A DNA stretch of 64,000 nt, taken from Macrostomum lignano (lineage: Eukaryota). Position numbers and translations under genes: made by a program. Below are positions 4,747-47,567 of this stretch, piece after piece. Where the stretch lies: positions 1 to 64,000 of the forward strand of contig NIVC01001040.1 of assembly GCA_002269645.1 (NCBI GenBank), in the 5' to 3' direction. Below the pieces are notes generated by a model that worked only from the letters and a program-made list of their open reading frames with translations, was not told where the DNA came from and searched no databases. How positions within the stretch are numbered: the first letter of the stretch is position 1; each line of letters starts with the position of its first letter.

Positions 4747-5592
4747 CTTAGATGTCAGGCCCAAAATTAGACCACCGATAGTCACCACCAAGCGCATCTC
4801 CCTACAATTTAAGACAATTTTAATGTAAACTTCTACTTTTCTGCATGATTCGGCAGGATCCGTAGGATGAAAACGTTTTTATTGGCTGCCATGCATTATG
4901 CAGCTCGATTTAAGTCAACAGATCTATATGCCATTAATAGTACAGTTTCAAGAGCCAGCTACTCAAGCTACTCACCTCTCAATGTACCCAGCCAGCTCTT
5001 CATGCCCATTGCGCGTCGCAATGTCTACAGCTGTCAGACCGTTGAGGTCCTTCAGGCCAAGCAGGCGTTTTCGTTCGTTATTCGGCTTCTCGGGTCCTTT
5101 GCCGCCATTCTGCTTAGGCGAGTCCGAACTCTCAGCTTCCTTCTTGTCGGTCTCCGTCCACTCAATGTGACTCCACTGCCGCAGCAGATGCAGCAGGTGC
5201 TTGGCGCAGATCCAGCTTCCGGTTTGAGCCGCCTCCATCAGCGGGGTCAGGCCTTGGCTGTTCTGCAGCCACTTAGCATTGAAAGGCATCAGCGCCAGAA
5301 GCCGCACGTTGTCCTGTCGGGCTGCCAAATGCGCAGCCGTGTTGCCCGACTGGTCAATCGCTTTGGTATCGGCGCCAAGTTTAATTAAGTACAAAATGCA
5401 CGTTTCAGCCTGATCTGGAATTCTTGGCGAGTCGGCTGCTAGCATGAGAACGGTACGGTTGGCTTGGTCGGTTGTCGTCACAAGCTGACTGGTTGCCAGC
5501 TGCTGCACCTGGTCAAAGTCACCTTGAATGACCAGCTGTGCGACAGTCTGGAGCGGAGCAGAGGTTGCAGGTGCACGCATTACCAATTGCAT
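4747..5592 (-). CDS. Short ankyrin-repeat gene, copy 1 (exons 5592-4976 and 4801-4747; no copy of the next exon of copy 2 found in the window)
   Basis: Ankyrin motifs NRTVLMLAA, GNTAAHLAA, GLTPLMEAA, GLTAVDIA. GT donor at 4975, AG acceptor at 4802 (phase 2), GTAAGC donor at 4746. Near-identical to 33204-32382. Confidence 0.75.
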
Positions 5593-5887
5593 CTGACATC
5601 TACAGCAGGACGAACAAAAACAGTCGGTATTAAATTATCAAATCTTAACCCAGGAAAGAGGTTTAACAAAACGGACCTACTAAACTAGACTAGGCTCTGA
5701 TAAACTACATTAAACTGCATATTATACAGAAAATGTAGAAATATTTTAAAATGTGAGTCTTTTAAGTGACAATATATTATCTATACACATGCTGCTATTA
5801 CTTAAGTTTCATCTACCACTTCAATATTATCTACCAAATTTCATAAATTGACACATGATTTAAATATGATCATGACACATGTCCATG

Positions 5888-11580: not shown

Positions 11581-14500
11581 TGTGACGGTGGACTTTTCTT
11601 TGTGCCACCCCATTTTTGATAAGTCTATAAATAGACCTGGTGCGCGCCAGAGGGCGATACTTGTTTTTCTCTTTGTTGCGGCTCCGTTAGGAGCCTTTGG
11701 ACAATCATCTCATTCTTATTTATTTACAAGAATGCAACATTGGTGACAGCGGTGCGGGCTCGAAGCACCCGTACAACCTGCGTTCCCAAGACGGGGCGCT
11801 CGGAGAAGGCTCCGAAGACAATGCTGAAGAAGCCAGCGGAATCCAAGATTCAGCTACGCTGGAGGGCGCGAATCTGATGAAGACAATGAAGATGCTCCTG
11901 ACGCACCAGAGTCAGCAGCTACAAGAAATGACTCGCGCGCAAGAAAGACAGTCAGCATTCTACCTGGAGCAACTGGCTCGTCAGCAAGCGGAGTTCACGA
12001 AGCTCCTGGCCGAGTCTAAGCCACGACCACAAGCAGCGGAGCCCAAGCTGTTTAAGCTGACGGACTCTGGTGACATCGAGGCATTCCTGATGACCTTCGA
12101 AAGGGCAGCGGCATCGTGTGGATGGCAAAAGTCAGAGTGGACGATTCGGCTGGCACCGCTACTGACGGGCGTTGCGCAGAGCGCATTCCACAGTCTGACG
12201 ACAGCGGCGAGCGCGTACTACGACTTGGCAAAGGCGACCATCTTAGCGAGATACAACATCGGCGAGGAGACCTACCGACAGCGATTTCGGTCTTTGCGGA
12301 AGGCGCCTGAAGAGACCTTCCAGGTGTTCGCAACGAAGCTGGAAGACCTGTTTGTCCGATGGATGACAGCTGGGCTGGACGAGGATCAGAGAGAGGAACT
12401 GATAAGTGGCGACTCCATCGTCAGGCAGAAAGTGCTTCTGGAGCAGTTTACGGACTCTCTGACAAGAGGACTCCAGGTGTGGATGCGAGAGAGAAAACCG
12501 AAGGACATCAAAGAGGCTGCGAAACTGGCCGATGACTACGCAATGGCAAGAAACAGCGACAAGGGCGGCGGAACACCAGGACACCCGAGCCAAGAGACCG
12601 CTGAGGGGGCGACGGCGTCCAATGCTGTGGACAAACAAAGGACGATTCAGAGACCGCAAAGCCTAAAGCCTAAGATTAGCTGCTTCAACTGCGGAGGCCC
12701 CCACAAGAAGTTTCAGTGTACCAACAAGCCCGCCAATGTCCACTTGGCCTCAGAGGAAAGAGCTATGGATGCTGCTTCGGGCAGGTTCATTACCGGACAT
12801 GCGGATGGCAAAGAACTGCGGTTCCTGATGGATACTGGAGCTGATCGAACTACGATTCGGCGTAGCTGTCTGCCTGAAAACATTAATTGGACAGGACATC
12901 ATGCATTATTGCGTTGTTTTGGCGGCGACGTACACCGTCTTCCAATCGCTAAAGTGGAGCTGCACCTAAAGGGCTACAATAGAACCACTGAGGTTTGTGT
13001 GGCTGACTCACTACCCGTAAGCGCGCTGGTTGGACTGGATTTGATTAGCCAGCTCAAGTTGGAGGGTGGAGACGCCCCGAGTACAGTGCTTGGAAGAGAG
13101 ACGCGCGAGGGGGTTCACGGCCAACCCCTCTCAGCCAATGAGAGAGAAGGGGTGGGTGCGCCGCACCGCCCAATGCCCCAGTCAGAGGGGGACGAGAGGC
13201 TTTTCGCGGAGGGCATCGTGGCTAGCGGCCTTAACCAGATCGATCCGGAGCCGGCTGGCAAAAAAAATCAAGAATAACTAGAGCCCAAGCGCGTAAACAA
13301 CGGCAAGAGTACAACAAAACGAGACAAGAAACTGCAATGCGCCCTATAACATTGGATTACGAGGCGGCCCTACAAGACGACAAGGAGTTGCAAGCAGCGG
13401 TACAAACCAACGACTTGGTGAAGGAAAGCCGCGGCAGACTGTTTCGGCATCGAGCAGCTGGAGAGGACCAACTGGTGCTTCCGAAGGCTCTGCGTGCTAC
13501 GGCGCTGTCCCAGGCCCATGAGAGTGCATTCGCTGGCCACTTGGGAACAAGGAAGACTTGCAACGACTGGAACAGCGATTCTGGTGGCCAACGATGACAA
13601 AGGACGTGAAGGACTTCGTAGCAACGTGCGACAAGTGTCAGAAGACGGCTCGAGTCCCAGGCTATCACAAGGTACCACTAGTCCAAGTGCCTGGAGTGGA
13701 GGAGGCCTTCACCAAAGTTATCATCGATATCAGTGGACCGTATACGAGGACTGCGAGTGGTCACCAGTACATCCTGTCGATTATCGATGCGGCTACTCGA
13801 TTCCCCGAAGGAGTCCCGCTGCGAAAGATCGACGCTGAGTCTGTAGCGAAGGCATTGGTGGACTGCTTCGTGAGGACCGGATTCCCGAGGGAGATCCAGA
13901 GCGATAAGGGTACTAACTTTTCATCAGCACTGCTGCAGGCCCTGTACCGGTGTACCGGGGTCGAGGGCATCCAGTCGACGCCGTACCATCCGCAAAGCCA
14001 GGCGTTGGTGGAGAGGTTCCACGGCACTCTCAAGAATATGTTGAGGAGACTACCAGCTCGCGAGAAAAATAAGTGGGACCAGTACCTACCGTTTCTGCTG
14101 TTCGCCATTCGGGAGGTGCCCAACGAAACAACTGGCTTCTCCCCATTCGAACTGCTGTACGGACGCACTGTGCGGGGACCGCTAGATCTACTGTGGCAGA
14201 CCTGGGATGAGCAGCTCTCCGAAGAGAAGAAGGACATCATCTCGTTCGTGCTGGCCCAGAGAGACCGACTGCGGGCTGGCCAGGAAGCGGCACGGAACAG
14301 CGAAGAGCTAGCACGGAAGCGTCAGAAACTCTGGTACGACCGGCAGTCGCGGGAACGAGAGTTGCAGCCCGGAGATCAGGTGCTGCTGCTGCTGCCATCG
14401 TCATCCAAGAAGCTTCACGCTGAATGGCGCGGTCCCTATGAAGTACTGGAGAGGTGCAGCAATGTGAACTACCGGATCCGGATGGGCCCTGCGACAAACA

Positions 14501-16341
14501 CGTTTCATGTCAACCTGCTTAAGAAGTACAATTCACGGGAGACGGTTTTGATGCAGCTTCCAGCGGCAGCTACGAGTGCTCCTGAGTTGTCCGAACATCT
14601 GACACCGGCCGAGAGAGATCGTCTCCTGCAGCTGGTGCAGGACTTCGCGGGCGTCTTCAGCGAGATCCCGGGCAGGACTGACCTAGTGGAGCACCGTATC
14701 CGGACGACATCTGACCGCGTAGTGCGCATCCGGCCGCGACGGGAGCCGCAGGCGCATCAGCAGGTGCTCCAAGAGGAGATTCAACGCATGCTGGACCTCG
14801 GGGTGATCGAACCATCTGACAGTGACTACTGCTCCCCGGTCTGTCTGGTGGCCAAGAAAGACAGCTCAGTCCGGTTCACTGTCAACTTCAAGGCGCTGAA
14901 TGAGCTTGTGGCCTTCGACTCGTATCCGATGAAGAACATCGAGAACCTACTGGAGCGGGTCGCCAAGGCCAAGTTCATATCTAAGCTAGACTGCTGCAAG
15001 GGCTACTGGCAAATTCCACTGTACGAGGATTCAAAGCGATTGACGGCTTTCGCGGCCTGCGGCAAGCTGTATCAATTTACTGTGATGCCCATGGGCTTAA
15101 ACTGCAGCAGCGCGACGTACCAAAGGCTCATGGACAAGCTGTTCCAAGGGCTGGACAACGCGGACTCCTACATCGATGACATCGCCGTGTTTAGCGCGAC
15201 TTTCGAGCAGCACGTCGAGGACCTGAGAGAAGTGTTCGGTCGCCTTAAGGCTGCCGGTCTAACGGTGCAGCCCCGAAAGTGCTACCTGGGCGGCAACTCT
15301 GCTGACTACCTGGGTTTCAAGCTCGGCGGAGGCGAGATCGGTACAAGCGAGGACCGAGTGCCGACAATCACGGCGCTGGCTCAGCCCCGGACCAAGGCTC
15401 AGCTGCGATCTGTGCTCGGAGTGCTCAACCACTACCGTCGGTTCGTGCCCGATTACTCAGAAAAGGTGGCGGCCTGACGGACCTCACGAAGAAGTCGGCA
15501 CCCGATGACCTGACGGCGGCCTGGGGAGAGCAGCAGACACGAGCCTTCGAGGCAGTGAAATCTCTGCTGGCGAGCGAGCCGATGCTGCGCGCGCCGGACT
15601 ACAGTCGGCAGTTTATCTTGGAGACTGACAGCTCGGAGACTGGGATCGGCGCGGTGCTAACGCAAGAACTCGAGGACGGCATCCATCCCGTGCTCTTCGT
15701 ATCTCGGCGGTTGACTTCGGCGGAGTGGAGCTACGCGACGATCGAGAAGAAGTGCCTCGCCGTGCGCTGGGCGGTCAAGAAGCTGCGGCACTACCTGCTA
15801 GGCCGCCGGTTCGTCATCAAGTCCGACCATAAGCCGCTGCAGTACCTGCAGATGGACCACGCCAACCCACGACTCCAGCGGTGGGCCTTCTATCTGTCCG
15901 GCTATGACTACGAGATCCAGTACCAGCCAGGCGAAAGCAACACGGTGGCCGATGGTCTCAGCAGGATCTGGGCTAGTGACCGACCAAGTGATTTAGTGAC
16001 AGACCAAGTGATTTAGTGACTGACCAAGTGATTTAGAGACTGACTGAGCGATTTAACTTTTATTCAAGTCATTAGTGGCCAAGTTTGGATTGTTTTTTTT
16101 TGTAAGACTTATCCGAACTTTGCGTGACCCTGCGATTGATTTTGGCTTGCGATTTTTCCGGCTTCGATCTTTTAGTGGAGGGTGTGACGGTGGACTTTTC
16201 TTTGTGCCACCCCATTTTTGATAAGTCTATAAATAGACCTGGTGCGCGCCAGAGGGCGATACTTGTTTTTCTCTTTGTTGCGGCTCAGTTAGGAGCCTTT
16301 AGACAATCATCTTATTCTTATTTATTTACAAGAATGCAACA
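11581..16341 (+). mobile_element. Ty3/gypsy LTR retrotransposon of Gmr1 type (gag-PR-IN-RT-RH), three frameshifts
   Basis: 159-bp TG...CA LTRs at 11581-11739 and 16183-16341 (3 differences). PBS TGGTGACAGCGGTG at 11741. Purine tract before the 3' LTR. TSD GTACG/GTGCG. SCAN-like gag, CCHC knuckle CFNCGGPHKKFQC, protease MDTGAD, integrase HHCC and core before RT (YIDD), RNase H (ETDSS). Confidence 0.93.
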
Positions 16342-16825
16342 GTGCGATACGAAAAAACCATGCAGGCCATCTTTCGCCTAAACATGGACGACCTATTGAT
16401 TGTCGCATGCAAATATAGGGGGCGGGTGGAATTTTTGAATAAAGCTACTCTCCCGCTATCTCATTTAGAACTCCGCTTATCGTACAGCGGTGCTGCTCCA
16501 CATCGACACTGCCCTGTCATTTAACACTGCCCTTTCATTAAACGCTGCCCTCCGTCTCTATATTACAAGTGCGTCAAAGTTGAACTAACCCATACTGATC
16601 TTGAAGATAAAGAAAAGAATCGGCCTCAGTCCATTTAAACAAATTTCTCTGCACAGGGAGAGCTCAGAGATTTCAGTCCGTGACAGCGGCACTTTTGCTG
16701 CTGCTGCTGAGCTGGCAGGCAAATTCGCTTGAAGAAGAGCAAAGCACTCAGTTTGAAGCCGTGTGGAACAGCTGCGGCAGACAGCAGATCGGCAGAGAAG
16801 CGCTGCTAGGAGAAGCAGTGTAGCC

Positions 16826-19800
16826 ATGGCAACACAGATGGAGCGGAAGCTGAGAGCGGCGCTGGAGGCTGGAGACAGCGAGGAGCTGCAGCGACTGTGC
16901 GGTGAGGTCGGCAGCAACATCGAGCTGGATGTGGGCGGGTTCGACAAGCAAGACTATCCCTTTGAAGAGGTTCGCCGAATGCCGCTGGCCCATCACGTGG
17001 CCTGCAAGCCGGTGAGCTCGTCGTGCCTGGAGCTGCTGATTGACAGATTCGGAACCGGCTGTCTGACATATGGAAATGGTAGGCTTATTCGTGAGACTCC
17101 AGTGCACTTGGCTGCCCAGCATCAGGACGAATCTTGGATGAAGCTGGTTAAAGAGAAGGGAGGCAGAGGCTGCTTGAGAATTGCCAATGAAGATGGAAAG
17201 ACAGTCGCTCACTTTGCCGCTATGAACAGAAAAAGCAACTCTTGTCTGAAGTGGCTGGTGAAGGAGCTCGGCAGCGACTGTCTCACAGTTCCTGACAAAT
17301 ACGGTAACACGGCCGTCCATTTGTCCGCTGAGCATCAGGGCATCGAGTCGCTGGAGTGGATCAAGAGACAGATCGGAACTGACTGCTTTCGGCTGAACAG
17401 AGGGTTCTGGAAGAGAACGGCATTTCACTTTGCTGCTCAGAAGTCTGACAATTCAAATCTGAAGTGGCTGGTGAAGGAGGTCGGCAGCGACTGTCTCACA
17501 GTTCCTGACAAAGACGGTAACACGGCCGTCCATTTGGCTGCTTGGCATCAGGGCATCGAGTCGCTGGAGTGGATCAAGAGACAGATCGGAACTGACTGCT
17601 TTCGGCTGAAGACAAAGAGTAATAGAACAGCATTTCAATTTGCTGCTGAGAAGTCTGACAATTCAAAACTGAAGTGGCTGGTGAAGGAGCTCGGCAGCGA
17701 CTGTCTCACAGTTCCTGACGAATACGGTAACACGGCCGTCCATTTGGCCGCTCAGCATCAGGGCATCGAGTCGCTGGAGTGGATCAAGAGACAGATCGGA
17801 GCTGACTGCTTTCGGCTGAAGGGATTGTTGGATAGAACAGCATTTCAATTTGCTGCTGAGAAGTCTGACAATTCAAATCTGAAGTGGCTGGTGAAGGAGC
17901 TCGGCAGCGACTGTCTCACAGTTCCTGACTCTAGAGGTGACACGGCCGTCCATTTGGCGGCTCAGCATCAGGGCATCGAGTCGCTGGAGTGGATCAAGAG
18001 ACAGATCGGAACTGACTGCTTTCGGCTGAAAGGAAGGCTCGATAGAACAGCATTTCACTTTGCTGCTAAAAAGTCTGACAATTCAAATCTGAAGTGGCTG
18101 GTGAAGGAGCTCGGCAACGACTGTCTCACAGTTCCTGACAGTTACGGTAACACGGCCGTCCATTTGGCCGCTAAGCATCAGGGCATCGAGTCGCTGGAGT
18201 GGATCAAGAGACAGATCGGAGCTGACTGCTTTCGGCTGAAGGGATGGTTGGATAAAACGGCATTTCACTTTGCTGCTGAGAAGTCTGACAATTCAAATCT
18301 GAAGTGGCTGGTGAAGGAGCTCGGCAGCCACTGTCTCACAGTTCCTGACGAATACGGTAACACGGCCGTCCATTTGGCCGCTCGGCATCAGCCAGTCGAC
18401 TCTCTGCAGTTCATTTTTGACCAAATCGGAGCCGAAATGTTCAGCTTGAAGAACAACAGGGGCGAAACACCGGCTGATGTTGTTGCGAGTCGGTGGTGCT
18501 ACGCAGACCAGTCAGAAAAGCGGGACTGGATTTCTTCCACGCAGCGGCGGCTCGAAGCCTCTCGGCCTCCCGCTGGCAGCTCAGCGCCGACTGCCGCCTC
18601 AGCTGGGTGAGTCCTGACTGAGAGCTGCTGCCTGACACTGAAAATACTGAAAATATTGTTTGGCGAAAATTCATTGCGCTTTGATGATCGGCGCCCTGAA
18701 ATTCTCAGCAGCGCCGCAGTCAAGCGAGGGCGTCATGAATCTGTCAGTGCAGCTCCTCATGGCGCCTCCAATCTCCCCATGGCGCCCCCAACCTCCCCAA
18801 GGCCACCCCAACTTCCCCATGGCGCCTCTAATCTCCACAAAGCGCCCCCAAACTTCCCACAGCTCGATTCCAGGAGTTTTTTAACACAAAGCATCAGCGA
18901 GTTCAAGTGCCATCAAAGTCTCCGAAGTTTCAAACTCTCCGATTTTAGTCTGAATGTACTTGGTGTGATGTTCAAAATATTGGCACTTGAATGATTTGAG
19001 AGCCTCCAATCTCTTCGTGGCGCCGCAATCTCCCGATCGCGCCCCAATGTCCACATAGCGCCACCCAAAGCTCAATCTGCAAGGCTTTTTATACACGAAG
19101 CATTAGCAGAGTTTAAGTGCCGCCTTGGCGACCCAGACATGTTTAACGGGCTCACTCGTAAAACTCTTCCTACAGCGCTGCAGCTCCGCGTCCCCGCCCA
19201 CGAGCTCGACAGAGCCTCCAGCCGCCTGGGCCGACTCCGGTCGGACTGCCTGAGGAGACTCGGTGAGAAATGATGAGGCGACAGTTGGTGATGGTGAACT
19301 CGTCAAAACCTGCAGTCTGAGCGCAGGCAACCAGCCAAAAGGAACCTGGCACTTCATGGCGCCCGAGGATGCTCATGGCAGAGGGATGGTGACGCAGAAG
19401 GGTGGTGACGCAGAAGGGTGGTGACGCAGAAGGGTGGTGACGCAGAAGGGTGGTGACGCAGAAGGGTGGTGACGCAGAAGGGTGGTGATGCAGAAGGGTG
19501 GTGACGCAGAAGGGTGGTGACGCAGAAGGGTGGTGACGCAGAAGGGCGGTGACGCAGAAGGGTGGTGACGCAGAAGGGTGGTGACGCAGAAGGTTGGTGA
19601 CGCAGAAGGGTGGTGACGCAGAAGGGTGGTGACGCAGGAGGGTGGTGACGCAGAAGGGCGGTGACGATGAAGGGTGGTGACGCAGAAGGGTGGTGACGCA
19701 GAAGGCTGGTGACGCAGAAGGGTGGTGACGCAGAAGGGTGGTGACGCAGAAGGCTGGTGACGCAGTAGACTGAGTGACTCCAAAGTACTCAGAAAGCCCC

Positions 19801-21599: not shown

Positions 21600-21917
21600 T
21601 GGCTTGCCGTGACCCGCTGTGTCCTGACTTGCCGTGACCCGCTGTGTCCTGACTTGCCGTGACCCGCTGTGTCCTGACTTGCCGTGACCCGCTGTGTCCT
21701 GACTTGCCGTGACCCGCTGTGTCCTGACTTTCCGTGACCCGCTGTGTCCTGACTTGCCGTGACCCGCTGTGTCCTGACTTGCCGTGACCCGCTGTGTCCT
21801 GACTTGGCGTGACCCGCTGTGTCCTAACTTGGCGTGACCCGCTGTGTCCTGACTTGCCGTGACCCGCTGTGTCCTGACTTGGCGTGACCCGCTGTGTCCT
21901 GACTTGCCGTGACCCGC
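21600..21917. repeat. 25-bp minisatellite, about 13 copies (gccgtgacccgctgtgtcctgactt); further units at 22324-22364 and 25405-25417
   Basis: Direct tandem array. Confidence 0.95.
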
Positions 21918-22731
21918 TCATAACGCCTTTGCAGCCTACTCAATTCTGTACAGATTATCTGCTTTATAAAGCTTCTAAACTGGAGGATATAAAGTATTGT
22001 CTGCTACTTTATAGAGACTAGGAGGCAATGATTGAAATAACAGAAACTTTATTCATTTTGACTGCAATGAAATATTGCGTATTGACGTTACTTTACTGTA
22101 CGCCCGCCGCTCCTACATGTAAATATAGCGCCAAACTGTGCTTCATGTTAAAGAAAACAAAATTTCGAGCAACCTGGCGAAAAAATTATCTTTCAAGTGC
22201 AACCAGTCCGGAGTTAATAGCATTTAAAGTTTAGCTGCAATGCAAACAAGCGGGCCTTCAAATAATTTTGCAATATTTACGAGTGTTGCGTCCTGATACA
22301 ACGGTAACTTCTAGTGGTCCTTGGACCCGCTGTGTCCTGACTTGCCGTGACCCGCTGTGTCCTGAGTAGTATATACGGTACAAAATCACCAGCAAACCCT
22401 TCTCATAATTCAAACGATTTAACCCTTTATCAGTGTGAAATGACTCGTTTTCCCTTCATTATCGCTCGTCTTTACTTCGCTCAACTCGTTTCGTTCATCC
22501 TCGCTTCATTTCGGTCAATCTCCTCATTTCACACTTACAACGATTAATTCCCATTGAATTATGAGAATACGCTCTCGTCGTTCGCTTTGGTTTGCTAGTG
22601 ATTTTGTACCGTACCCAACTCATCCAACTCTTCTAACTCTTCTAACACTTCCAACTCTCCCCAACACACACAAACACTCTATAACCCGCTGCCGCGCCGC
22701 AGGCGCGAAGGGTCTTTTTCTGTTACTAAAA

Positions 22732-23052
22732 ATGAACCGAGTTTACACCTTTTCTGTTAGTGATACTTTTGAGACCGTTGCTAAAAATGCAGAGATAATA
22801 AAACAGCATATTTTGAATGGAATAATTGATGAAGTTTATTTAAAATATGATGATAAGCACGATCTAAAACTTTATCCGTTAGAGTTGGATGGGATGTATG
22901 ATCTAGAACAAGAGGGTGAGTTAATATTTCAACTTGGAGATTATTTAAATTCTGATGATTGGGAGACTCGTTCAGATGATTCCAACTCAACAAATAGCTC
23001 ATATGAAACTAGCGATTCGGATAATTATTATGAAAAATATTTTAAAAAATGA
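22732..23052 (+). CDS. Polinton-derivative ORF, 106 aa acidic hypothetical protein
   Basis: ATG sits at the inner edge of the left TIR; MNRVYTFSVSDTFETVAKN...YYEKYFKK. Confidence 0.6.
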   Translation: MNRVYTFSVSDTFETVAKNAEIIKQHILNGIIDEVYLKYDDKHDLKLYPLELDGMYDLEQEGELIFQLGDYLNSDDWETRSDDSNSTNSSYETSDSDNYYEKYFKK

Positions 23053-23216
23053 AGGTAAATTATTCGTACATCGGAAACGTACCGATTGATGAACTTAATG
23101 AAAATTTAAGTCTAATTACTGTTGAACAAATGTCAATAATAATATTAGTAACAATAATAGTAATAATATTGTTTTTGTTTGTTATAAAAAATTTACTACC
23201 ATGTCAACTGCCTTAA
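23049..23216 (+). CDS. Polinton-derivative small membrane protein, 55 aa (not in ORF track)
   Basis: ATGA overlap with the previous stop. MKVNYSYIGNVPIDELNENLSLITVEQMSIIILVTIIVIILFLFVIKNLLPCQLP contains one hydrophobic stretch. Confidence 0.5.
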   Translation: MKVNYSYIGNVPIDELNENLSLITVEQMSIIILVTIIVIILFLFVIKNLLPCQLP

Positions 23217-23230
23217 GTAACTGTTCGAAC

Positions 23231-23563
23231 TTAGTTCGCAGACATTATTTGGTTCTCATAAAAAGAACCCAATATTTCTTCACCATCCTTATCAGCAATT
23301 ATATAGGTTGTAGGATTTTCAGCCTTTTCTATTAAACGCTTCATTTCATATTCTGCCCTTATATTATTTGCTAATGCGTTTATTTCCTGTTCTTGTATTT
23401 CTCTTTCTCTTTGTCTTTCTCTCTGTCTTTGTCTTGCTCTTTGGCGACGTTGTTGTCTTTGGCGCTGTTCAATTTGTTCAATCTGTCTTTGTAATCGATT
23501 GAACTGTTGGCGCTCATTTGCAAGCAGTTGTCGAATCTGATCTGGGGTCAATCTTTGTTCCAT
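23231..23563 (-). CDS. Chimeric ORF: R/Q-rich coiled coil fused to a Polinton integrase-like C-terminal tail
   Basis: C-terminus NPTTYIIADKDGEEILGSFYENQI resembles the P.TY...D..GE.I.G.FYE.EL tail recalled for Maverick integrases. Confidence 0.55.
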   Translation of the reverse strand: MEQRLTPDQIRQLLANERQQFNRLQRQIEQIEQRQRQQRRQRARQRQRERQREREIQEQEINALANNIRAEYEMKRLIEKAENPTTYIIADKDGEEILGSFYENQIMSAN

Positions 23564-23647
23564 TTTATAGAATATAATTTATACAATATTTGAATTATTG
23601 GTTTTTTAATTTTAGGTTTTAGACGTCCTGACCCTCCCCACAGGAGC

Positions 23648-24604
23648 TTATTCGAGTTCCGCTTTAGGTAACAGTAGTCCACTACCCATAACATTTGCAT
23701 TTAAGAAAATTCCAGATCCGGCTTTGGGTCTCATTTCAAGATATAATCCGCTTCCGTCGTGTTTTTCAATGATGTTAAAATCTTTACCCAATTTATTAAA
23801 AATCTTCTGAACTGCTGGCCTAAAATTAGCTCTAATATTGTCAAAAAATCCTTTAGCTTTCTCGCCCGTTTTTTCTAGAGTTTGTCCAAATTCATGTAAT
23901 TTATCTGCTACAACCCCACTTCCTTGGGTTGATCCTTGTAGGAGTAAACCCTTCCCAGCTGCTAACCTAGCTTCTGCATTTCTTTTTTGTTCTGCTGTTG
24001 CTGAACTACTATTAATTGTATCTATAAGTTTTTGTTTGAATTGAGCATCCTGTGTTATTTGCTGTCTTTGAAATTCAGCATCTCGTTTAGTTTTTTCATC
24101 CGCAGCTTTTTTATCGTTTACTGCTTTTGTGATTCCTGCTGCGCCACCTGCTATTCCACCAGCTGCTCCTATTCCTGCAAAAATTATTGGTAATAAAGTT
24201 GCAAGTGGAAGTATACCTCCTTGTTTTGCTTTTAATTCTGCTAACTGTTTTCGGTTATCATGAATTCTTTTGCCTGCTAAACCGGCTGCTCCAGCCGCTC
24301 CGAGGCCTAAAAGAATTGGTAAAATGGGTAACAACCCACCGTCCTTTTTAGTGTGAGTTTCTATTAAAAATTTTACATCGGAGTCTGTCAGCCTATAATT
24401 TCTACCATGATTCTTAAAGGATATTGGCCTTCCTCCTTGTGCATATTTTGCAGCAAGTTTAAATGTATCAATATCATAGTCAAGTTTTTTACTTAAACGA
24501 TCCAATCTTTTTAACATTGTATGGCTTTGTTTGTTATAATCTAAACCTAGAGTGTCTACGATTTCTCCTATAAAAGATAGCCGACTGTCATTAACTGAGT
24601 CCAT
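23648..24604 (-). CDS. Polinton virion-associated polyprotein-like ORF, 318 aa, with two adenovirus protein X-like motifs
   Basis: KDGGLLPILPILLGLGAAGAAG and KQGGILPLATLLPIIFAGIGAAGGIAGG; several G(S/K)G-hydrophobic motifs near the C-terminus. Confidence 0.7.
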   Translation of the reverse strand: MDSVNDSRLSFIGEIVDTLGLDYNKQSHTMLKRLDRLSKKLDYDIDTFKLAAKYAQGGRPISFKNHGRNYRLTDSDVKFLIETHTKKDGGLLPILPILLGLGAAGAAGLAGKRIHDNRKQLAELKAKQGGILPLATLLPIIFAGIGAAGGIAGGAAGITKAVNDKKAADEKTKRDAEFQRQQITQDAQFKQKLIDTINSSSATAEQKRNAEARLAAGKGLLLQGSTQGSGVVADKLHEFGQTLEKTGEKAKGFFDNIRANFRPAVQKIFNKLGKDFNIIEKHDGSGLYLEMRPKAGSGIFLNANVMGSGLLLPKAELE

Positions 24605-24614
24605 TTTTATATTG

Positions 24615-25025
24615 CTAAAATTTCTTTAATCCTTTTCCACTTTTAATTGTAGTTAACATTTTATTAAAATCCTGAATATCCTTATTACTTATTGGTGTGC
24701 TTTTTGTGGGGGTTTCTGTTGGTTGTGCGGCTTGAGTTGCTTCCTGCGCTAGTTTCAAATCTTTTATTGCTTTTATTTGTGAGAGGGTGTCGTTAAATTC
24801 TCTCAATTTCTTTAGTTCTTCTACTGCCCTCGCTGCTTCGATTCCGCCCTTTACAGCGTTTGTTATAGAACCTGCTGCGGAGCCTGCTTGCCCTATAAGA
24901 CCCATATTGTCTTTAACAAAATTTGCTGCTGTTCCAACCACATCAAAAAGACCCTCACCTCGGTATTCAACTGGGTCTCCTACCTGAAATTCATTCAGAT
25001 TTTGCACATGTGTAACGTGTGTCAT
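24615..25025 (-). CDS. Polinton-derivative ORF, 136 aa, putative protease-matured amphipathic protein
   Basis: ATG just inside the right TIR. YRGEG-LFDVVGTAANFVK amphipathic segment; ends KSGKGLKKF. Confidence 0.6.
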   Translation of the reverse strand: MTHVTHVQNLNEFQVGDPVEYRGEGLFDVVGTAANFVKDNMGLIGQAGSAAGSITNAVKGGIEAARAVEELKKLREFNDTLSQIKAIKDLKLAQEATQAAQPTETPTKSTPISNKDIQDFNKMLTTIKSGKGLKKF

Positions 25026-26536
25026 TTTTTGTTCTATTTTTAGTAACAGAAAAAGACCCTTCGCGCCTGCGGCGCGGCAGCGGGTTATAGAGTGTTTGTG
25101 TGTGTTGGGGAGAGTTGGAAGTGTTAGAAGAGTTAGAAGAGTTGGATGAGTTGGGTACGGTACAAAATCACCAGCAAACCAAAGCGAACGACGAGAGCGT
25201 ATTCTCATAATTCAATGGGAATTAATCGTTGTAAGTGTGAAATGAGGAGATTGACCGAAATGAAGCGAGGATGAACGAAACGAGTTGAGCGAAGTAAAGA
25301 CGAGCGATAATGAAGGGAAAACGAGTCATTTCACACTGATAAAGGGTTAAATCGTTTGAATTATGAGAAGGGTTTGCTGGTGATTTTGTACCGTATATAC
25401 TACTGTCCTGACTTGCCAAGTCAGGGCCTGGGATGAGATGTCTCGGCGATTCTAGTCGTCTGGGCCGACAAGTTATCGATTGCAGTCGGTTTGGTCCTGA
25501 GCTGAACTTCGGGCTCCATTCTGGTGCTTAAGTTGACATCTCCTTTCTCATCAACTCGATTTTTATTTCACAGTATACTCATCAAAATCGAAAGGTCGCC
25601 ATCACAGAAGATTCCGTCTGTGCATGGTCGCCACTTTGGAGAGTGCAGGTAAAGTCTCTCAATCTTGCGAGTGACGCAACGTAGCTACGCCACGGTCGGC
25701 AGCCTTGAGTTGAGGAATGAAGTGGGGGGAGAGGTGTGCGAGGGTTGGACGGATTTAAGCTACCCCGATCAGTTTTCTCGCATCTTTTATTTCAGAATAG
25801 TCCAAGAGAAATTGCTCACTGGCGCATAGAGTGGCGACTTTTCAATGTTGCTGAGTATATATTACCAATAGTAAACTATCATTACACACTACTGTTCAGA
25901 GTAGTTAAACCAGCCAAGTTAATGTTTTACAGTGACTGTAAAATCAACATGTTTGCGATCAAAACGTAGTGCCGTTATCTTGCAAAGCAGTGCCCCGCTA
26001 TTCAACAAGTAGCTATATATATAGTTAGCTTAAAGAAAACATTACGATCGCTTCAATTTCTTCTGATAAGCGCTCCTGCAAGGCTGGTTCGTAGGTTTCC
26101 GAGTTAAATAGTGGCAACGTTTTTATTATTTAAAAATGTATAAATTTCTTCTCGTGAAATTTCTGCCGACATTGTGAGTTATTGATAGGATAAATGGGGC
26201 TCTGGGAGGACGTCAGGTCAAAGCAATGGAGGAACAAGCGAAAAATTTACAATTTAAAAATTGCTAAACAAGAGTTATTCAAACATCCGGGAGGTACCAA
26301 GGAGGTATATAGTTATATTGTTTTGATATTGTTTCTGGGTTTGCAAAAGTAATAATGAAGCAATTCACTCATGGACTACTAAAGTAGAAGGATGCGACAC
26401 TCAAAATCGATGTAGAATGTTTTGATGACCACTTTTGCCGAAAAATACACTGACGAGATAGGAAGTTTTCATTTTTTAGCACAAAAATTGTTATTGCTTT
26501 CGATAGGAGGCAGACCCAGAGTTCATCTTTTGATAT

Positions 26537-29500
26537 TGTAGTGACTGTGCATCGGGCCTAGGTGTTGTAACTAACTAACTTTGAGGCTAGAATTGTTCAA
26601 TTACCTTATATGCATCGTGCGTTCAATCATGGTATCGTTGTTTCGATTGCGTAACACTGTTTTCAACGTGCACATGAGTATAAATATATTGAGCGAGACT
26701 CAAGTGTCTCCAACTGAATTGAATTTAATCAATCAACTAGAACACAACAAATGGCGACGAGCGGACTCCCGTACCCAGCGGAGTTTCAACCAGTACCAGG
26801 CGAACCTCCTGTGCCATGGGCAAGGTGGATAAAGTCATTTGAGAACTTCCTGGTAGCTGGAGCTCTCGAAGAGGCATCAGAGAGTCGGAAGAAGGCGATC
26901 CTCCTGCATCTGCTTGGTGAGGAAGGACGCCGCCGAGCTGCAAACGTCGATGCAAGCAAGTCGCTTCAGGAGACCAAAAAGGCACTGAAGGCGATTTTCA
27001 GCTCGTCGAGAAGCGTCATAGCAGAGCGCTTCGCCTTTCGGCAGCGAGCCCAGCACGACGGCGAGAGCATCGGAGACTACGTGATGGCCCTGAGAGAACT
27101 GGCAACAAACTGCAAATTTGACACCTTTCACGACGAAATGATTCGAGACCAACTTGTGGAGAAAACCTGCGTACCTCGCATTAGGGAAAGACTCCTGATG
27201 GAGGAGGACGATCTGACGCTAGATGACGCCATCAAGAAGGCTGAGCGAATCGAAGCAGCCATCAAAGATGCCAAGCAGGTCAGCGGCCCAGAGCTCCACG
27301 TGAAGGCGCTGAGCAAGAAGCCGAAGCCAGCTGCTCGCCATGAGAAGACCGCAGCAGCAGGTCCAAAGTGCACTCGATGCGGAGGCAACCACGGACACAA
27401 GGGCGAATGCAAGGCGATGGGCCAGAAATGCAGACGATGCGGCAAGACGAACCATTTCGCGAAAATGTGCCGCATGAAAGCGGTCTCTGCGATCGACACC
27501 AAAGAGCCTGCAGAGTCCAGTCTGACGGTCCTGGCCGTGAACAACAAGAGCACAGACAGCTTATTCTGCGAATGCCGTCTGGGCGGACAGCTGATTCGAC
27601 TGCAAATCGACTGCGGTGCTGCCGTTTCGTTGCTCAACATGGAGACGTTCAAGAAGTCCTTCGCTAGGCACCCGCTGCTTCCGACGAGCACAAAACTGGA
27701 GGCATACGGCGGATCTGCGATCAAGACCATCGGCAAGGTCGAGCTTCCAGTGACGTTCAACGGCATCAGGACAGAAGCCACATTCTACGTCGCCGACAAA
27801 GGAGCGAACATCCTGGGCCGCGACCTGTTTCAGGCCCTCGGATTCAAAATCTTCCAAGGTGACAACAGAGTGATGAGCATCAGCGAGACTACGATCGAGC
27901 GCGACTTCCCCGGAATCTTCGACGGTCTGGGCCGGTCCAAGAGCTTCATTCACCGGACAAAGATCGACGCCTCGGTCAAGCCAGTGTCTCAGCCAATGCG
28001 GAAGCTGCCGATCGGCCTGAAGGACGAAGTGACGTCAGAGATCAGCCGGATGGAGCAACAGGGCATCATTGAGAAGGTCGACGCGTCCGAGTGGGTTAGC
28101 AACGTTGTCGTGACGCGCAAGAAGGAGTCCAACAAGGTTCGTCTCTGCGTGGATCTGCGGCAGGTCAACAAGGCGGTGATCGCGGACCGCTATCCGGTAC
28201 CGTCAATCGAGGACCTATCGGCCAGCATCAACGGCTCGAAGTGCTTCAGCAAGCTGGACCTGCGTCAAGGCTACCAGCAGATTCCGCTGCATCCAGACTC
28301 TCGAGGACTGACGTGCTTCATCACCGATGCCGGCCTGTACCAGTTCACCGTGGTGCCATTCGGGCTATCTAGCTCCGGAGCTGCCTTCCAGCGAGCCCTG
28401 CAGACGGTGCTTCGAGGAGCTCCTGGCGCCATCAACATCGTGGACGACATCCTGGTGCACGGCAAGGACGAGACTGAGCACGACAAGAACCTCCGAGAAG
28501 TCCTAGGGCGGATTCATCGCGAAGGCTTCACACTCAATCGAGAGAAGTGCAAATTCCGGCAGGCGAGCGTGGATTTCTTCGGATTGGTCATCTCTGCAGA
28601 CGGCATCAAACCGACCAAGTGCAACGTCGACGCAATTCTAAGAATTCCTGAGCCATCAACGGTCGCGCAAATTCAATCGTTTCTCGGAGCAGTGAACTTT
28701 TTGCACAAGTTCATACCGCATTACTCAGCAATTGCCGAGCCTCTGAGACAACTGCTCAAAAAGGACGCGGACTGGCACTGGGGTGAGCGGGAACGTACAG
28801 CCTTCCGTACACTCAAGTCAGCCGTAACCAGCAGCCCAGTGTTAGCTCATTTTGACTGCCAAGCTGAGACGTACGTCACCTGCGATGCAAGTCTAGACGG
28901 ACTGGGGGCAGTGCTCAGCCAAGTACAAAACGAAAAAGAGGTGCCAATCGCGTTCGCATCGAGAGCACTCAGCCCAGCGGAAAAGCGATACTCAGCCGGA
29001 GAGCGAGAAGCCCTGGCCTGTGTATGGAGCATCGAACGCTGGCACTACTATCTATACGGCAGACGAGTAACGCTGCGCACCGACCACAAGGCCCTGACAA
29101 CTCTGCTCGACTCGAAAGGCATGGGGCACAGGCCTCTTCGCATTCATCGATGGGTCGAGAGACTTCGCGGCTACGACGTCCGGTTTGAGCACATCCCTGG
29201 CGCTGACAACAAGTGCGCGGACATGCTGTCCAGATGGGCCACGACGGAGCGCGTTCCAGCCGAGGAGACCGACGAGGAGGGCTACGTCTACGCAGTCGTC
29301 GACTCGAAGACAACGCTGACGGCAGACGCACTGGCAACGGCGACCAAGGAGGACGAAGTGCTGCAGGCGGTTTTGCAGTACATCTCGGGCGGCTGGCCAT
29401 CGAAGGTGGACAGCTCTCTAAAGCCGTACTTCAACGTCCGGGACGAGCTGTTCTGCTGGAACAACGGTCAGTGCCTCGGTCGTGGTGAACGCGCGATCAT

Positions 29501-30860
29501 CCCGACGAGCCTGCGACTTCAAGTCATCGAGGAGGCCCACGAAGGGCATCCGGGCGTCGTTCGGTCAAAGCAGCGGTGCCGCGACACGGTCTGGTTTCCT
29601 GGAATTGACCGGCAGGTGGAGGACTACGTCAAGAACTGCACGGCCTGCACTCTGGCGGAGAAGTCCGGCAAGCCTCAACAGACGATCGTGACACCAATCG
29701 AGTGGCCAGATGGACCGTGGGACAAGGTCGAGATCGACATCTTCGGCGAGGTCGCCGCGGCTCCTCGACACCAGCGGTTTCTACTGGTGATCCACGACCT
29801 GTACAGCAAGTGGCCGGAGATTGCAGCCATGGAAACCGTCACCTCTGCCAACATCATCAAGACGCTTCGGAAGCTATTCGGCCGGTGGGGAGTCCCGAAG
29901 ATGCTGATCAGCGACAACGGACCCCAGTTCGTCAGCGACGAGTTCGAAGAGTTCCTGCGAGCCGAGGGCATCAAGCACAGCCGAGTGAGCCGGTACTACC
30001 CGCAAGGCAACGGCGGAGTCGAGCGATTCAACCGGAGTCTGAAGGAGGGCCTGGCAGCGAACCTGAGGGCGGGAGCGAAGTTCGAGGACGCCATCGACCT
30101 GGTGCTCAAGACCTACAGGACCAGCCAGCACGCTCTCACCGGGCTGACTCCAGCCGAGCTGATGATCGGGCGCAAGCTGCGGTCCGGACTGCAGCTGCTC
30201 AGGCCAACTCCAGTGCAACAGCGGGACGACAGCGACCTGCGAGACAGTATCGCACAGAGGCAAGCCAAGAATGCCGATTACACCAACAAGCGAAGGCGAG
30301 CTCGTGACTCTATGCTCCAGGCCGGAGACTGGGTCTGGCGACAGACGCCGCACCGAGCGCACAAGCTGGCGACCCGACTGAAGGAACCGCTAAAGATCGC
30401 CTCCAAAGCAGGGCGCAACACCTTCGTGCTGTCCGACGGTACAAAGTGGCAAGCGAGTCGGCTGGTTAAGTGCAACAGCCCACCGGCTGACAACGGCGCG
30501 GCCGACCAAGAGGACGACTGGTTCGATTTGCCGCTGCCGCCGGCTCCGCCCCACGGACGGGCGAGCCGCCACCTCCACCTGAGCTTCGAAGGTCAACTCG
30601 AGCTCGACGGCAACCGGCGCGTTATCCTCTTCCGGAAGGGGGGAGAATGTAGTGACTGTGCATCGGGCCTAGGTGTTGTAACTAACTAACTTTGAGGCTA
30701 GAATTGTTCAATTACCTTATATGCATCGTGCGTTCAATCATGGTATCGTTGTTTCGATTGCGTAAAACTGTTTTCAACGTGCACATGAGTATAAATATAT
30801 TGAGCGAGACTCAAGTGTCTCCAACTGAATTGAATTTAATCAATCAACTAGAACACAACA
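26537..30860 (+). mobile_element. Ty3/gypsy (Mag-like) LTR retrotransposon, apparently intact and young
   Basis: 213-bp TG...CA LTRs at 26537-26749 and 30648-30860 (1 difference). Perfect 5-bp TSD GATAT. PBS TGGCGACGAG at 26752. PPT ggaaggggggagaa. Confidence 0.96.
26751..30689 (+). CDS. Single-frame Gag-Pol polyprotein, 1312 aa (two Zn knuckles, PR, RT, RNase H, IN)
   Basis: CTRCGGNH..C and CRRCGKTNHFAKMC; IDCGA; RT with IVDD; RNase H TCDAS; integrase HHCC and SDNGPQF...ERFN. Confidence 0.95.
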   Translation: MATSGLPYPAEFQPVPGEPPVPWARWIKSFENFLVAGALEEASESRKKAILLHLLGEEGRRRAANVDASKSLQETKKALKAIFSSSRSVIAERFAFRQRAQHDGESIGDYVMALRELATNCKFDTFHDEMIRDQLVEKTCVPRIRERLLMEEDDLTLDDAIKKAERIEAAIKDAKQVSGPELHVKALSKKPKPAARHEKTAAAGPKCTRCGGNHGHKGECKAMGQKCRRCGKTNHFAKMCRMKAVSAIDTKEPAESSLTVLAVNNKSTDSLFCECRLGGQLIRLQIDCGAAVSLLNMETFKKSFARHPLLPTSTKLEAYGGSAIKTIGKVELPVTFNGIRTEATFYVADKGANILGRDLFQALGFKIFQGDNRVMSISETTIERDFPGIFDGLGRSKSFIHRTKIDASVKPVSQPMRKLPIGLKDEVTSEISRMEQQGIIEKVDASEWVSNVVVTRKKESNKVRLCVDLRQVNKAVIADRYPVPSIEDLSASINGSKCFSKLDLRQGYQQIPLHPDSRGLTCFITDAGLYQFTVVPFGLSSSGAAFQRALQTVLRGAPGAINIVDDILVHGKDETEHDKNLREVLGRIHREGFTLNREKCKFRQASVDFFGLVISADGIKPTKCNVDAILRIPEPSTVAQIQSFLGAVNFLHKFIPHYSAIAEPLRQLLKKDADWHWGERERTAFRTLKSAVTSSPVLAHFDCQAETYVTCDASLDGLGAVLSQVQNEKEVPIAFASRALSPAEKRYSAGEREALACVWSIERWHYYLYGRRVTLRTDHKALTTLLDSKGMGHRPLRIHRWVERLRGYDVRFEHIPGADNKCADMLSRWATTERVPAEETDEEGYVYAVVDSKTTLTADALATATKEDEVLQAVLQYISGGWPSKVDSSLKPYFNVRDELFCWNNGQCLGRGERAIIPTSLRLQVIEEAHEGHPGVVRSKQRCRDTVWFPGIDRQVEDYVKNCTACTLAEKSGKPQQTIVTPIEWPDGPWDKVEIDIFGEVAAAPRHQRFLLVIHDLYSKWPEIAAMETVTSANIIKTLRKLFGRWGVPKMLISDNGPQFVSDEFEEFLRAEGIKHSRVSRYYPQGNGGVERFNRSLKEGLAANLRAGAKFEDAIDLVLKTYRTSQHALTGLTPAELMIGRKLRSGLQLLRPTPVQQRDDSDLRDSIAQRQAKNADYTNKRRRARDSMLQAGDWVWRQTPHRAHKLATRLKEPLKIASKAGRNTFVLSDGTKWQASRLVKCNSPPADNGAADQEDDWFDLPLPPAPPHGRASRHLHLSFEGQLELDGNRRVILFRKGGECSDCASGLGVVTN

Positions 30861-31631
30861 GATATGTTGTGCCTTTCTTATTGCTCTATCGATATTCATA
30901 AAGCTTTTCGTTCAGAAAATAAGAATTATATGTTAAGTTTTAATTCTACGTACACTTCCTGTACCTAAAAATCATTAAAGTGGATGGCACAGCTCCAATC
31001 TTTGATTTTATGAATCTATTTCATCATCTCTGTTACACATTTTGCTACACAGTCGGCTAAGAATGACAATAGACTCATAAAACCAATGAGCTGAGCTGTG
31101 CCATTTTAATGGTTTTTAGGCACAAAAAATATACAATTTTACGTAGAATAAAAAAGTATGAAAATTTATGAATACCAATAGAGCTATAAGAAAGGCACAG
31201 CACATCAAAAAGATGAACATTAGGTCTGCCTCCTATCGATAAAGAAAGCCATAACAATTTGTGTGCTGCAAAAATGAAAACTTCCTATCCCCAGTGTATT
31301 TTTCTGCTAAAAGTGGCCTTCAAAACATTTTCCATAGATTTCGGGTCACAATCGGGTGTCGCGTCCTGTATATGTTGCTTTAGTTGTCCTTGCAATTAAC
31401 CATGCTAACAAAGGTGAAAAAAATTATTCAAAGCAAAGATAATTAAGTGTCGATTCTTGCACAGGAAGCTGAGTCACTCTGCGCCACACGGCAGTTTTGA
31501 TCAGTGTGTGTACCTTTGCAGCTGCTTTGAACATTCAAAAGTAGCTGCGACCTTCGTACCTGAAATTCATCAAGTGCTCAATGATTTTCGTGCAGCAGAA
31601 CTGGACTCATCAATTTTCAATGTTAACTCAC

Positions 31632-32344: not shown

Positions 32345-33204
32345 GCTACTACTACCGTGAGCTTGTACTATGGCTAATTACCTTAGGTGTCAGGCCCGAA
32401 ATTAGACCACCGATAGTCACCACCAAGCGCATTTCCCTAAAAATCAAAACAAGGTTTAGACGCTATAAGTTAAATAATGTAGGCTTCTACGTTTCTGTAT
32501 GATTCTGCAGGATCTGTAGGATAAAAGTCAATCATTTTTCAACGTTTTTATTGACTACCATTCATTTCAAAGCTCTCAACCCACCTCTCAATGTACCCAG
32601 CCAGCTCTTCATGCCCATTGCGCGTCGCAATGTCTACAGCTGTCAGACCGTTGAGGTCCTTCAGGCCAAGCAAGCGTTTTCGTTCGTTCTTCGGCTTCTC
32701 GGGTCCTTTGCCGCCGCCGTTCTGCTTAGGCGATTCCGAACTCTCAGCTTCCTTCTTGTCGGTCTCTGTCCACTCAATGTGACTCCACTGCCGCAGCAGA
32801 TGCAGCAGGTGCTTGGCGCAGCTCCAGCTTCCGGTTTGAGCCGCCTCCATCAGCGGGGTCAGGCCTTGGCTGTTCTGCAGCCACTTAGCATTGAAAGGCA
32901 TCAGCGCCAGAAGCCGCACGTTGTCCTGTCGGGCTGCCAAATGCGCAGCCGTGTTGCCCGACTCGTCAATCGCTTTGGTATCGGCGCCAAGTTTAATTAA
33001 GTACAAAATGCACTTTTCAGCCTGAGCTGGAATTCTCGGCGAGTCGGCTGCTAGCATGAGAACGGTACGGTTGGCCTGATCGGTTGTCGTCACGAGCTGA
33101 CTGGTTGCCAGCCGCTGCACCTGGTCAAAGTCACCTTGAATGACCAGCTGTGCGACAGTCTGGAGCCGAGCAGTGGTTGCAGGTGCATGCATTACCAATT
33201 GCAT
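31632..33204 (-). CDS. Short ankyrin-repeat gene, copy 2 (exons 33204-32585, 32436-32382, 32116-31632; continues downstream, 3' exons not found)
   Basis: Splice phases match (2, 0, 2). Third exon has ankyrin motifs GRTAAMWAA, DNSLHYAA, YTPLMLAA, GKTALELA. GTGAGT donor at 31631. Confidence 0.78.
32136..32355. repeat. (CTA)n microsatellite, about 220 bp, intronic
   Basis: Direct inspection. Confidence 0.98.
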
Positions 33205-34174
33205 CTGACATCTGACTCGCTTACAGAATAATAAATCTTACCTGAACATCAGTTGTCATGCTTTATGATTTATGATACTTCTCAGTTTGTGTCTGTCTAA
33301 CGAATGCTCCAAAGAACTCTCTAGAACTGCGCCAATTTGGTTCTCTTGTCTTGACAAAACAGCAATTTTAGCACACATATAGCTAGTACGTAGCCTGTCT
33401 TGCAAAGGTTTATGAAGTCGTCATTTTACAGGGCCTTCCAATACCCTTCTTGTCTCTGCCTGTCTCTCTGTCTCACCCTCCTGTCTGTGTGAGGCCGTGC
33501 GGTGTGCCTGTCTGGAGGCTAAAACTGTGTTTTCGTAAATAGATTCGTGGCCGCACAAGTGCTTGCTCTGTGTGCAGATAAGATTATTATTGTACGATGC
33601 AAACGAATCTTTAACCGAAAGGAGTCGGCAGTATGTGTAAATGACAGACCCCGCGGCTTTTCTATTCATTACTACTTGGCTACACAGAGATCCATACTAA
33701 CTTTCTACGCATTTTCATGCAAAGCAGTCCTAGCATGCGTGATTATTTGGACGCGTTGTAAAATTAGAAAACTCATGGGAAGTATATATCAGAATTAACA
33801 TCTACACTACAGAGGGGGTAAACAAGCCGATATTCGTGTGCATCTGTCGCCAAAATTTGCTTTGCTGGAACTATATGAGTTTACTTTAGTAGTTTAATTT
33901 GGAATCATATGGCCGCCAAAACTTGCGGGCAGGCAACTAAATTATCTTTGGGTAGAGCCGTAACTCGACAGAATTTACTTCAAAAACAGCCTGAAAAATT
34001 TTCTTTACCCCTAAACTTGGACCTGCCGAGCATTCTAATCTCCATCATGCACCACAATGCAAAATCTGCCTAAAAAGCGTCATTTGAGTGCGTTTCGGCC
34101 GACCAACAATGAGTCTTGCTACCGGCGCCCCCACAGCGGTGCACCGACAGAGCCGAGGCCAGTGGGTCTGGACT

Positions 34175-47405: not shown

Positions 47406-47567
47406 GCTATAGGTCAGCCCCGGTGTGAAGGCTAGGAGCTCACCTGCAGGATGAAATTGTACAACACTGCGTTAAAAACTTTCATACCTTAATAATAATA
47501 ATGGATTATTCTTTATGGCAGCTATTTTCCATAATAAACAACTCATTTTCTTAACTTCTAATGATTA

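Follow-up and report, generated by a model that had tools for sequence, protein, structure and literature searches.

A 3,040-bp element with the ends of a Polinton (Maverick) was identified at positions 22365-25404 in DNA of Macrostomum lignano, within the first 64,000 nucleotides (64 kb) of contig NIVC01001040.1 (GenBank assembly GCA_002269645.1), a stretch here called the window. The element is very probably a deletion derivative of a Polinton; on the simplest account it is a non-autonomous Polinton (Maverick) of endogenous adintovirus-like type that lost a large part of its interior in one deletion. An earlier note on this DNA had proposed Polinton descent from the ends only, and the proposal is now backed by the N-terminus of a protein-primed DNA polymerase and by a pX-like candidate core protein.

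The element consists of two inverted arms of 369 nt each, i.e. terminal inverted repeats (TIRs), around a core of 2,302 nt. The arms are the longest among the 28 inverted pairs of the window and differ at 1 of 369 positions, with the mismatch at 22597; AGTAGT is present at both ends, and GTCCTG directly flanks the element on each side. These boundaries, including the single mismatch and the perfect flanking hexamers, agree with those given in the earlier note. The GC percentage of the element is 36.9 in comparison to 48.4 for the window. The insertion site lies within one unit of a 25-bp minisatellite that has its main array at 21603-21918. A 23-base stretch across the site, containing a single GTCCTG, occurs eight times in the minisatellite array, and the doubled hexamer occurs nowhere in the window. 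Since the array units hold the single hexamer and never the doubled form, the duplication is a product of the insertion, that is, a true 6-bp target-site duplication (TSD), neither a chance match nor a pre-existing repeat. The uninterrupted minisatellite units of the window are its own empty-site control. With a perfect TSD and near-identical TIRs, the insertion is recent. No second copy of the element, no parent and no other element with these ends was found in the window. Just right of the insertion point, the host target continues as a perfect inverted repeat of 9 bp around a single-base loop (25407-25425).

Intact vertebrate Mavericks are 12.7-24.6 kb long and have TIRs of 46-1,447 bp (mean 402 bp), (AGT)2 or (AG)3 ends and 6-bp TSDs (PMC8097293), and the ranges for nematode Polintons are similar (10.1101/2023.08.22.554363). 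The end motif AGTAGT, the TIR length of 369 bp (expected about 50-1,500 bp with (AG)3 or (AGT)2 ends) and the TSD GTCCTG (expected 6 bp, range 5-8 bp) are all within published Polinton ranges, which argues for Polinton origin. Only codons 1-82 remain of the protein-primed DNA polymerase B (pPolB) gene. No rve domain was identified in the five open reading frames (ORFs) of the element, where at most a 28-codon tail is a lead to the integrase gene, and the same five ORFs returned no match to ATPase, protease, or major or minor capsid genes; the length is likewise outside the 13-25 kb of a complete Polinton. Because working polymerase, integrase, ATPase, protease and capsid genes are missing, the element is unable to move alone. 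It is accordingly no autonomous Polinton but a non-autonomous derivative, in which Polinton ends and a Polinton-derived interior are retained and the transposition genes are lost.

The deletion itself can be located within ORF C (23231-23563, minus strand, 110 aa). When 1.84 billion cluster representatives were searched in full with HMMER, this ORF had a single match, the 988-aa protein P0013 (E-value 3.7e-31). P0013 is a protein-primed family B polymerase (Pfam DNA_pol_B_2, E-value 3.2e-16) and presumably shows the expected protease-like, exonuclease and polymerase motifs; it seems to be cut before motif C, ending shortly after motif B and lacking the DTDS motif. The domain layout used for this polymerase was taken from PMC11071308. 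Codons 1-82 of ORF C are identical to the N-terminus of P0013 in 79 of 82 residues (96%), and the match ends abruptly after residue 82, which is the evidence for a deletion derivative. As the identity stops dead at this point, ORF C is a deletion scar, a 5′ remnant of the polymerase gene fused in frame to 28 other codons. The three differences in 82 residues indicate that P0013 is a close sibling and not necessarily the parent. Of what characterizes a defective-interfering genome, two features were found, derivation by deletion, with the junction mapped, and retention of both ends.

The 28-codon tail of ORF C is likely, as an unproven lead, the C-terminal SH3-like end of a Polinton integrase, which we take it to resemble. 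The Atlas pointed to IN_DBD_C with 0.80 and to chromo-domain clusters with 0.76, neither of which reaches the bar of 0.9 for a match. The Atlas neighbours with an assigned family were all of integrase C-terminal or chromo/Tudor type, with 10 of 10 sharing a family or clan, although one third of shuffled proteins do so too. Sequence searches with the tail were empty (none of three candidates scored, no Pfam family, no phage match), and it had no match to the P0013 polymerase fragment. Against PDB just four matches at E-values of 0.6-1 were returned, and among 138 ORFs no preference was seen for the integrase ends of the window's own Gypsy elements. Gene-context scans of GTDB produced 273 and 258 pattern matches, none of which was confirmed.

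Table 1. Features of the element and of its target site, with positions in the window.
Feature	Position	Strand	Basis or remark
Left TSD GTCCTG, within host 25-bp minisatellite unit	22359..22364	+	single copy per unit in neighbouring array
Left TIR, 369 bp, AGTAGT end motif	22365..22733	+	inverted-repeat search
Foldback in left TIR (TIR positions 10-249)	22374..22613	.	mirrored at 25156-25395
ORF A, 106 aa, acidic, pI 4.2, stop-free	22732..23052	+	ORF list
ORF B, 55 aa, start overlaps ORF A stop (ATGA)	23049..23216	+	ORF list
ORF C codons 83-110 and stop, tail from a different region	23231..23317	-	lead: integrase C-terminal SH3-like end
Deletion junction, codon resolution (ORF C codons 82/83)	23317..23318	.	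left arm 953 bp, right arm 2,087 bp
ORF C codons 1-82, 5′ remnant of pPolB gene	23318..23563	-	P0013 alignment
ORF D, 318 aa, stop-free, doubled pX-like hydrophobic motif, putative virion core protein	23648..24604	-	Pfam and homologs
ORF E, 136 aa, stop-free, Gly/Ala-rich	24615..25025	-	ORF list
Right TIR, 369 bp	25036..25404	-	inverted-repeat search
Right TSD GTCCTG	25405..25410	+	direct repeat beside element

The five ATG-initiated ORFs (A to E; 106, 55, 110, 318 and 136 aa) cover 94.9% of the 2,302-bp core in a compact viral layout, converging from both TIRs with A and B on the plus strand and C, D and E on the minus strand. The ATG of ORF A straddles the left TIR edge (22732-22734) and that of ORF E (25025) lies 11 bp inside the right TIR edge, both ORFs pointing inward, as described in the earlier note. 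ORFs A and B overlap by ATGA, and the ends of ORFs B and C are 14 bp apart. The start context AAAATG was found in five of five ORFs and in 8 of the 80 ATGs of the element (hypergeometric P about 2e-6, for a context chosen post hoc). Longer versions of ORFs A and E begun within the TIRs (163 and 197 aa) were set aside, as their ATGs lacked the AAAATG context; these ATGs also appear to be upstream of a TATA-like box. The five compact ORFs reported earlier are all present, but only four of them (A, B, D and E), which are free of internal stops, look like whole genes, ORF C being a chimera.

ORF D is a candidate core protein of the GasderminX/PLA2X class by the resemblance of its pX motif. Adintoviruses carry such pX-bearing core proteins (GasderminX, PLA2X) as well as cupiennin-like proteins (Starrett et al., PMC8502044). 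The Pfam family Adeno_PX was matched by ORF D with an E-value of 1.3e-4 and 22.2 bits, under the 25-bit cut-off. From 8,000 scored candidates six protein matches were obtained, four with 43-56% identity over 88-100% of the length; the other two were weak and shorter, and these two weakest matches pass the Adeno_PX cut-off. ORF D differs from these two shorter pX-bearing matches in that its pX-like motif is doubled and its N-terminus is longer and of another kind. No gasdermin-C-terminal-like or PLA2 domain was found in ORF D by Pfam, PDB profile or fold search (mean predicted local distance difference test, pLDDT, score of the model 47), and the fold search with this model returned no match at all. 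Its PDB profile matches, all with E-values of at least 0.015 (haemagglutinin HA2, apolipoprotein C-I), were taken as chance helical likeness. Each of the four close homologs (P0006-P0009) was from a single contig of 1,229-2,536 bp, a length close to that of the 2,302-bp core or smaller; these contigs may be ordinary short assemblies.

The remaining ORFs were less informative. ORF A is probably an accessory gene. It had no match in Pfam, PHROGs or Atlas, and its low-confidence model (pLDDT 52) gave no viral fold match at E-value ≤0.001; a CR1-like “oncoid” motif was dismissed, as 9% of shuffled sequences carry one too. ORF B, with one strong hydrophobic segment (19-residue hydropathy 3.47), encodes a probable small membrane protein and had no significant family match in Pfam or PHROGs. 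In ORF E an amphipathic helix follows a G-x-G motif, and the product is possibly a cupiennin-class or pVI-like core protein; no homolog was found among 38 candidates at E-value ≤1, and a weak similarity to the ORF D family was seen in a shuffle comparison. A loose pattern of G-x-G or x-G-G followed by hydrophobic residues occurred eight times in ORF D (2.0 in shuffles) and three times in ORF E (0.5 in shuffles) and was also enriched in all six ORF D matches, the pattern having been chosen after the sequences were seen. Published adenain protease motifs were enriched in none of the eight proteins examined.

Each TIR contains a foldback of 240 nt, with a 25-nt outer stem, a 44-nt imperfect inner stem and an 80-nt pyrimidine-rich loop (22.5% purine). 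In DNA folding the TIR foldback had a z-score of -8.9, with none of 100 shuffles equally stable, and Rfam returned no matches in 22000-25800. The outer stem pairs at 25 of 25 positions in the right TIR and at 24 of 25 in the left. As the sole TIR mismatch breaks the left stem, the left TIR is probably the mutated one of the pair. The foldback is a property of the parent family and not of the deletion. [quoted passage not shown] The Halocafeteria palindromes are located at the extremities, measure 52 nt in the illustrated subtype and are mostly associated with non-pPolB replicases (10.64898/2026.07.28.741278), whereas the present foldback is 240 nt long, begins 9 nt in from the end and is part of an element with pPolB.

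Cut-down Polintons are an already known, catalogued kind. According to Repbase usage, the N in a name such as Polinton-1N1_DR denotes a non-autonomous family. Families like this one, named for a zebrafish Polinton (PMC9341505), share with the present element Polinton ends without the machinery to move; they are catalogued repeat families, whereas the present element is known from one copy in the window and is likened to them by name, not by sequence or gene content. A literature search that left the founding papers and Repbase outside did not find any short Polinton described as carrying genes and a mapped junction in the polymerase, which is weak evidence. With the AGT-ended animal Polintons (Mavericks, adintoviruses) the element shares the (AGT)2 motif, the 6-bp TSD, a TIR length near the 402-bp mean, a GC content low in relation to the host, the protein-primed polymerase N-terminus and a pX-bearing core gene; it differs in its length (3.0 kb against 12.7-24.6 kb) and in the absence of a whole polymerase, integrase, ATPase, protease or capsid gene. 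Defective, helper-dependent forms of linear protein-primed replicons, such as adenovirus genomes reduced to their inverted terminal repeats, have likewise kept the termini, lost the interior and replicate in trans only, and a kalilo plasmid deletion derivative has reportedly been described. The present molecule is unlike these in being integrated and known from sequence alone. Ds-type and P-element deletion derivatives have a single internal deletion with intact ends and TSD, and differ in that the parent here was a virus-like self-synthesising element and not a cut-and-paste transposon.

For the origin of the short form, the following account as a whole, with deletion before insertion, is given an even chance. 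The parent would have been organised as TIR, ORF E, ORF D, polymerase, the lost block, the integrase end, ORFs B and A on the other strand, and TIR, and the ATPase, protease and capsid genes would have disappeared with the lost block. The deletion would most likely have arisen by template switching on an extrachromosomal copy, in the course of protein-primed strand-displacement replication. The short molecule would have retained the sole cis parts required, i.e. the AGT-repeat origins and the integrase-recognition ends in the TIRs; a role of Polinton ends as replication origins follows from PMC8097293. The integrase of a full-length relative would then have put the short molecule into the minisatellite and generated the 6-bp duplication. 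Without an active helper sharing its nucleus, the element would by now be inert, and the genes that it kept were probably not selected as a set but are passengers beside the TIR promoters. The five compact ORFs of the earlier note are no purpose-built or streamlined satellite gene set but leftovers of a single deletion at the two ends, one of them a broken fusion. Deletion before insertion is weakly favoured because so young a copy, with 1 of 369 TIR positions different and no other visible damage, would have had little time to lose more than 10 kb.

Several points weigh against this account. No test applied here separates deletion before from deletion after insertion, the window contains neither a second copy nor the parent, and the cluster representatives gave the long polymerase alone (one match) and not another instance of the 110-aa fusion. 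In-place decay is the fate of most Mavericks, with 96% of vertebrate loci degraded (PMC8097293), most nematode copies are incomplete or pseudogenised (10.1101/2022.07.12.499685), and non-autonomous copies are apparently absent in anole (PMC3014272). Moreover, conversion can maintain TIR identity, which makes a copy look younger, and the integrase assignment of the ORF C tail did not reach significance in any search.

The strongest alternative, of considerable but less than even probability, is that a full-length Polinton was inserted here and its middle was subsequently lost in place, the short form itself never having moved. The loss could have occurred, for example, by an ordinary large deletion or by excision with incomplete gap repair from the sister chromatid or homolog, a route known for derivatives of Ds and P elements. 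The outcome would have an identical TSD, identical TIRs and likewise one junction, the element is single-copy in the window, and most genomic Mavericks are incomplete or degraded (PMC8097293; 10.1101/2022.07.12.499685); on the other side, there is hardly any other decay (1 of 369 TIR positions mismatched, four stop-free ORFs), which would leave a short time for a loss of more than 10 kb. The earlier note had regarded the clean TSD and the TIR identity as a sign of mobilisation in trans. As in-place deletion leaves both untouched, this argument fails: they show recent insertion and fit in-place deletion equally.

A more far-reaching reading is unlikely, namely that an active Polinton virus has given rise to the 3-kb form as a defective genome that is integrated in the germ line and spreading. 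Its junction would be present at many sites and it would be copied and packaged by a helper; the TIR promoters would express intact core proteins and a peptide of polymerase head and integrase tail that compete with or dampen the helper, and the 240-nt foldback would be a replication or packaging signal.

A deletion confined to one gene is quite improbable. In that case the 28-codon tail of ORF C would be the genuine C-terminus of the polymerase, and the parent a small element of polymerase and core genes that had neither integrase nor capsid. P0013 stops soon after motif B, which places the true C-terminus outside the comparison, and the fusion is in frame; on the other side, in-frame joins arise by chance once in three, the family-bearing Atlas neighbours of the tail are all of integrase C-terminal or chromo/Tudor type (under the 0.9 bar), and the tail resembles what we take to be Polinton integrase ends. 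Slightly more doubtful still is an assembly error that collapsed a full-length Polinton at the junction. Tandem repeats and mobile elements abound in the window, which was judged from the assembly alone, but no repeat was found at the junction in a search of the element against the window, the TIRs were resolved with their distinguishing mismatch, and the window contains no N. Least credible is a multipartite virus of bidnavirus-like or Vesanto-like type, of which the element would be one 3-kb segment bounded by TIRs and naturally containing core-protein genes only: Vesanto segments measure 3.3-5.8 kb and have inverted terminal repeats (PMC8363768), and the four closest ORF D homologs are on contigs of just 1.2-2.5 kb, but such contigs are common in these collections whatever their origin, the 6-bp TSD and AGT-repeat ends are marks of Polinton integration (PMC8097293), no other element sharing the ends is present in the window, and a natural segment is unlikely because the polymerase gene is broken, its cut 5′-end being fused in ORF C to foreign codons, where a segment should hold whole genes only and has no need of such a fusion.

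The surrounding DNA of the window is animal-like and contains retroelements, of Gypsy type among others, together with ankyrin, TRP-like and Mab-21-like ORFs. The minisatellite that contains the Polinton derivative is split by another insertion of 405 bp (21919-22323), located 41 bp upstream of the element and flanked by the 8-bp direct repeat GACCCGCT (21911-21918, 22324-22331). On the basis of its TSD length this insertion looks like a hAT-type non-autonomous element, and further copies of its right end are present at 57893-57965 (82% over 83 bp) and, with weak similarity, at 48200-48242. A Gypsy-like element with a SCAN-domain gag and frameshifts was identified at 11691-16016, with the integrase ahead of the reverse transcriptase, an order we take to be Gmr1-like. 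A second, Gypsy-type long terminal repeat (LTR) retrotransposon at 26537-30811 has an open gag-pol of 1,323 aa and is also very young, as its LTRs are 99.4% identical over 164 bp. A dispersed inverted-repeat family (26365-26546, 31208-31341, 47595-48266) comprises copies of 81-85% identity, some paired like the arms of miniature inverted-repeat transposable elements. One ankyrin-repeat ORF is present in two near-identical copies about 27.6 kb apart (4849-5634 and 32503-33237), a local duplication. Long uninterrupted ankyrin-repeat ORFs are located at 385-3782, 16757-18610 and 42347-47471, one of which precedes a Mab-21-like domain and another includes an ion-channel domain, and the ankyrin-repeat ORFs possibly represent an expanded immune or sensory gene cluster.

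The element cleanly illustrates an ordinary outcome, a Polinton with its interior deleted. It points to a Polinton lineage that was active recently, the core protein relatives of which in the database are only 43-56% identical, and it shows which cis sequences survived, namely both TIRs with their unusual foldback. If the junction recurs genome-wide, the element would show the smallest set of cis sequences with which a Polinton can be replicated and integrated in an animal, and would provide a direct handle on whether Polintons pass through an extrachromosomal, helper-competent stage. If the reading as a spreading defective genome were true, the element would represent a heritable defective-interfering system for an animal Polinton and an indirect sign of an ongoing viral cycle.

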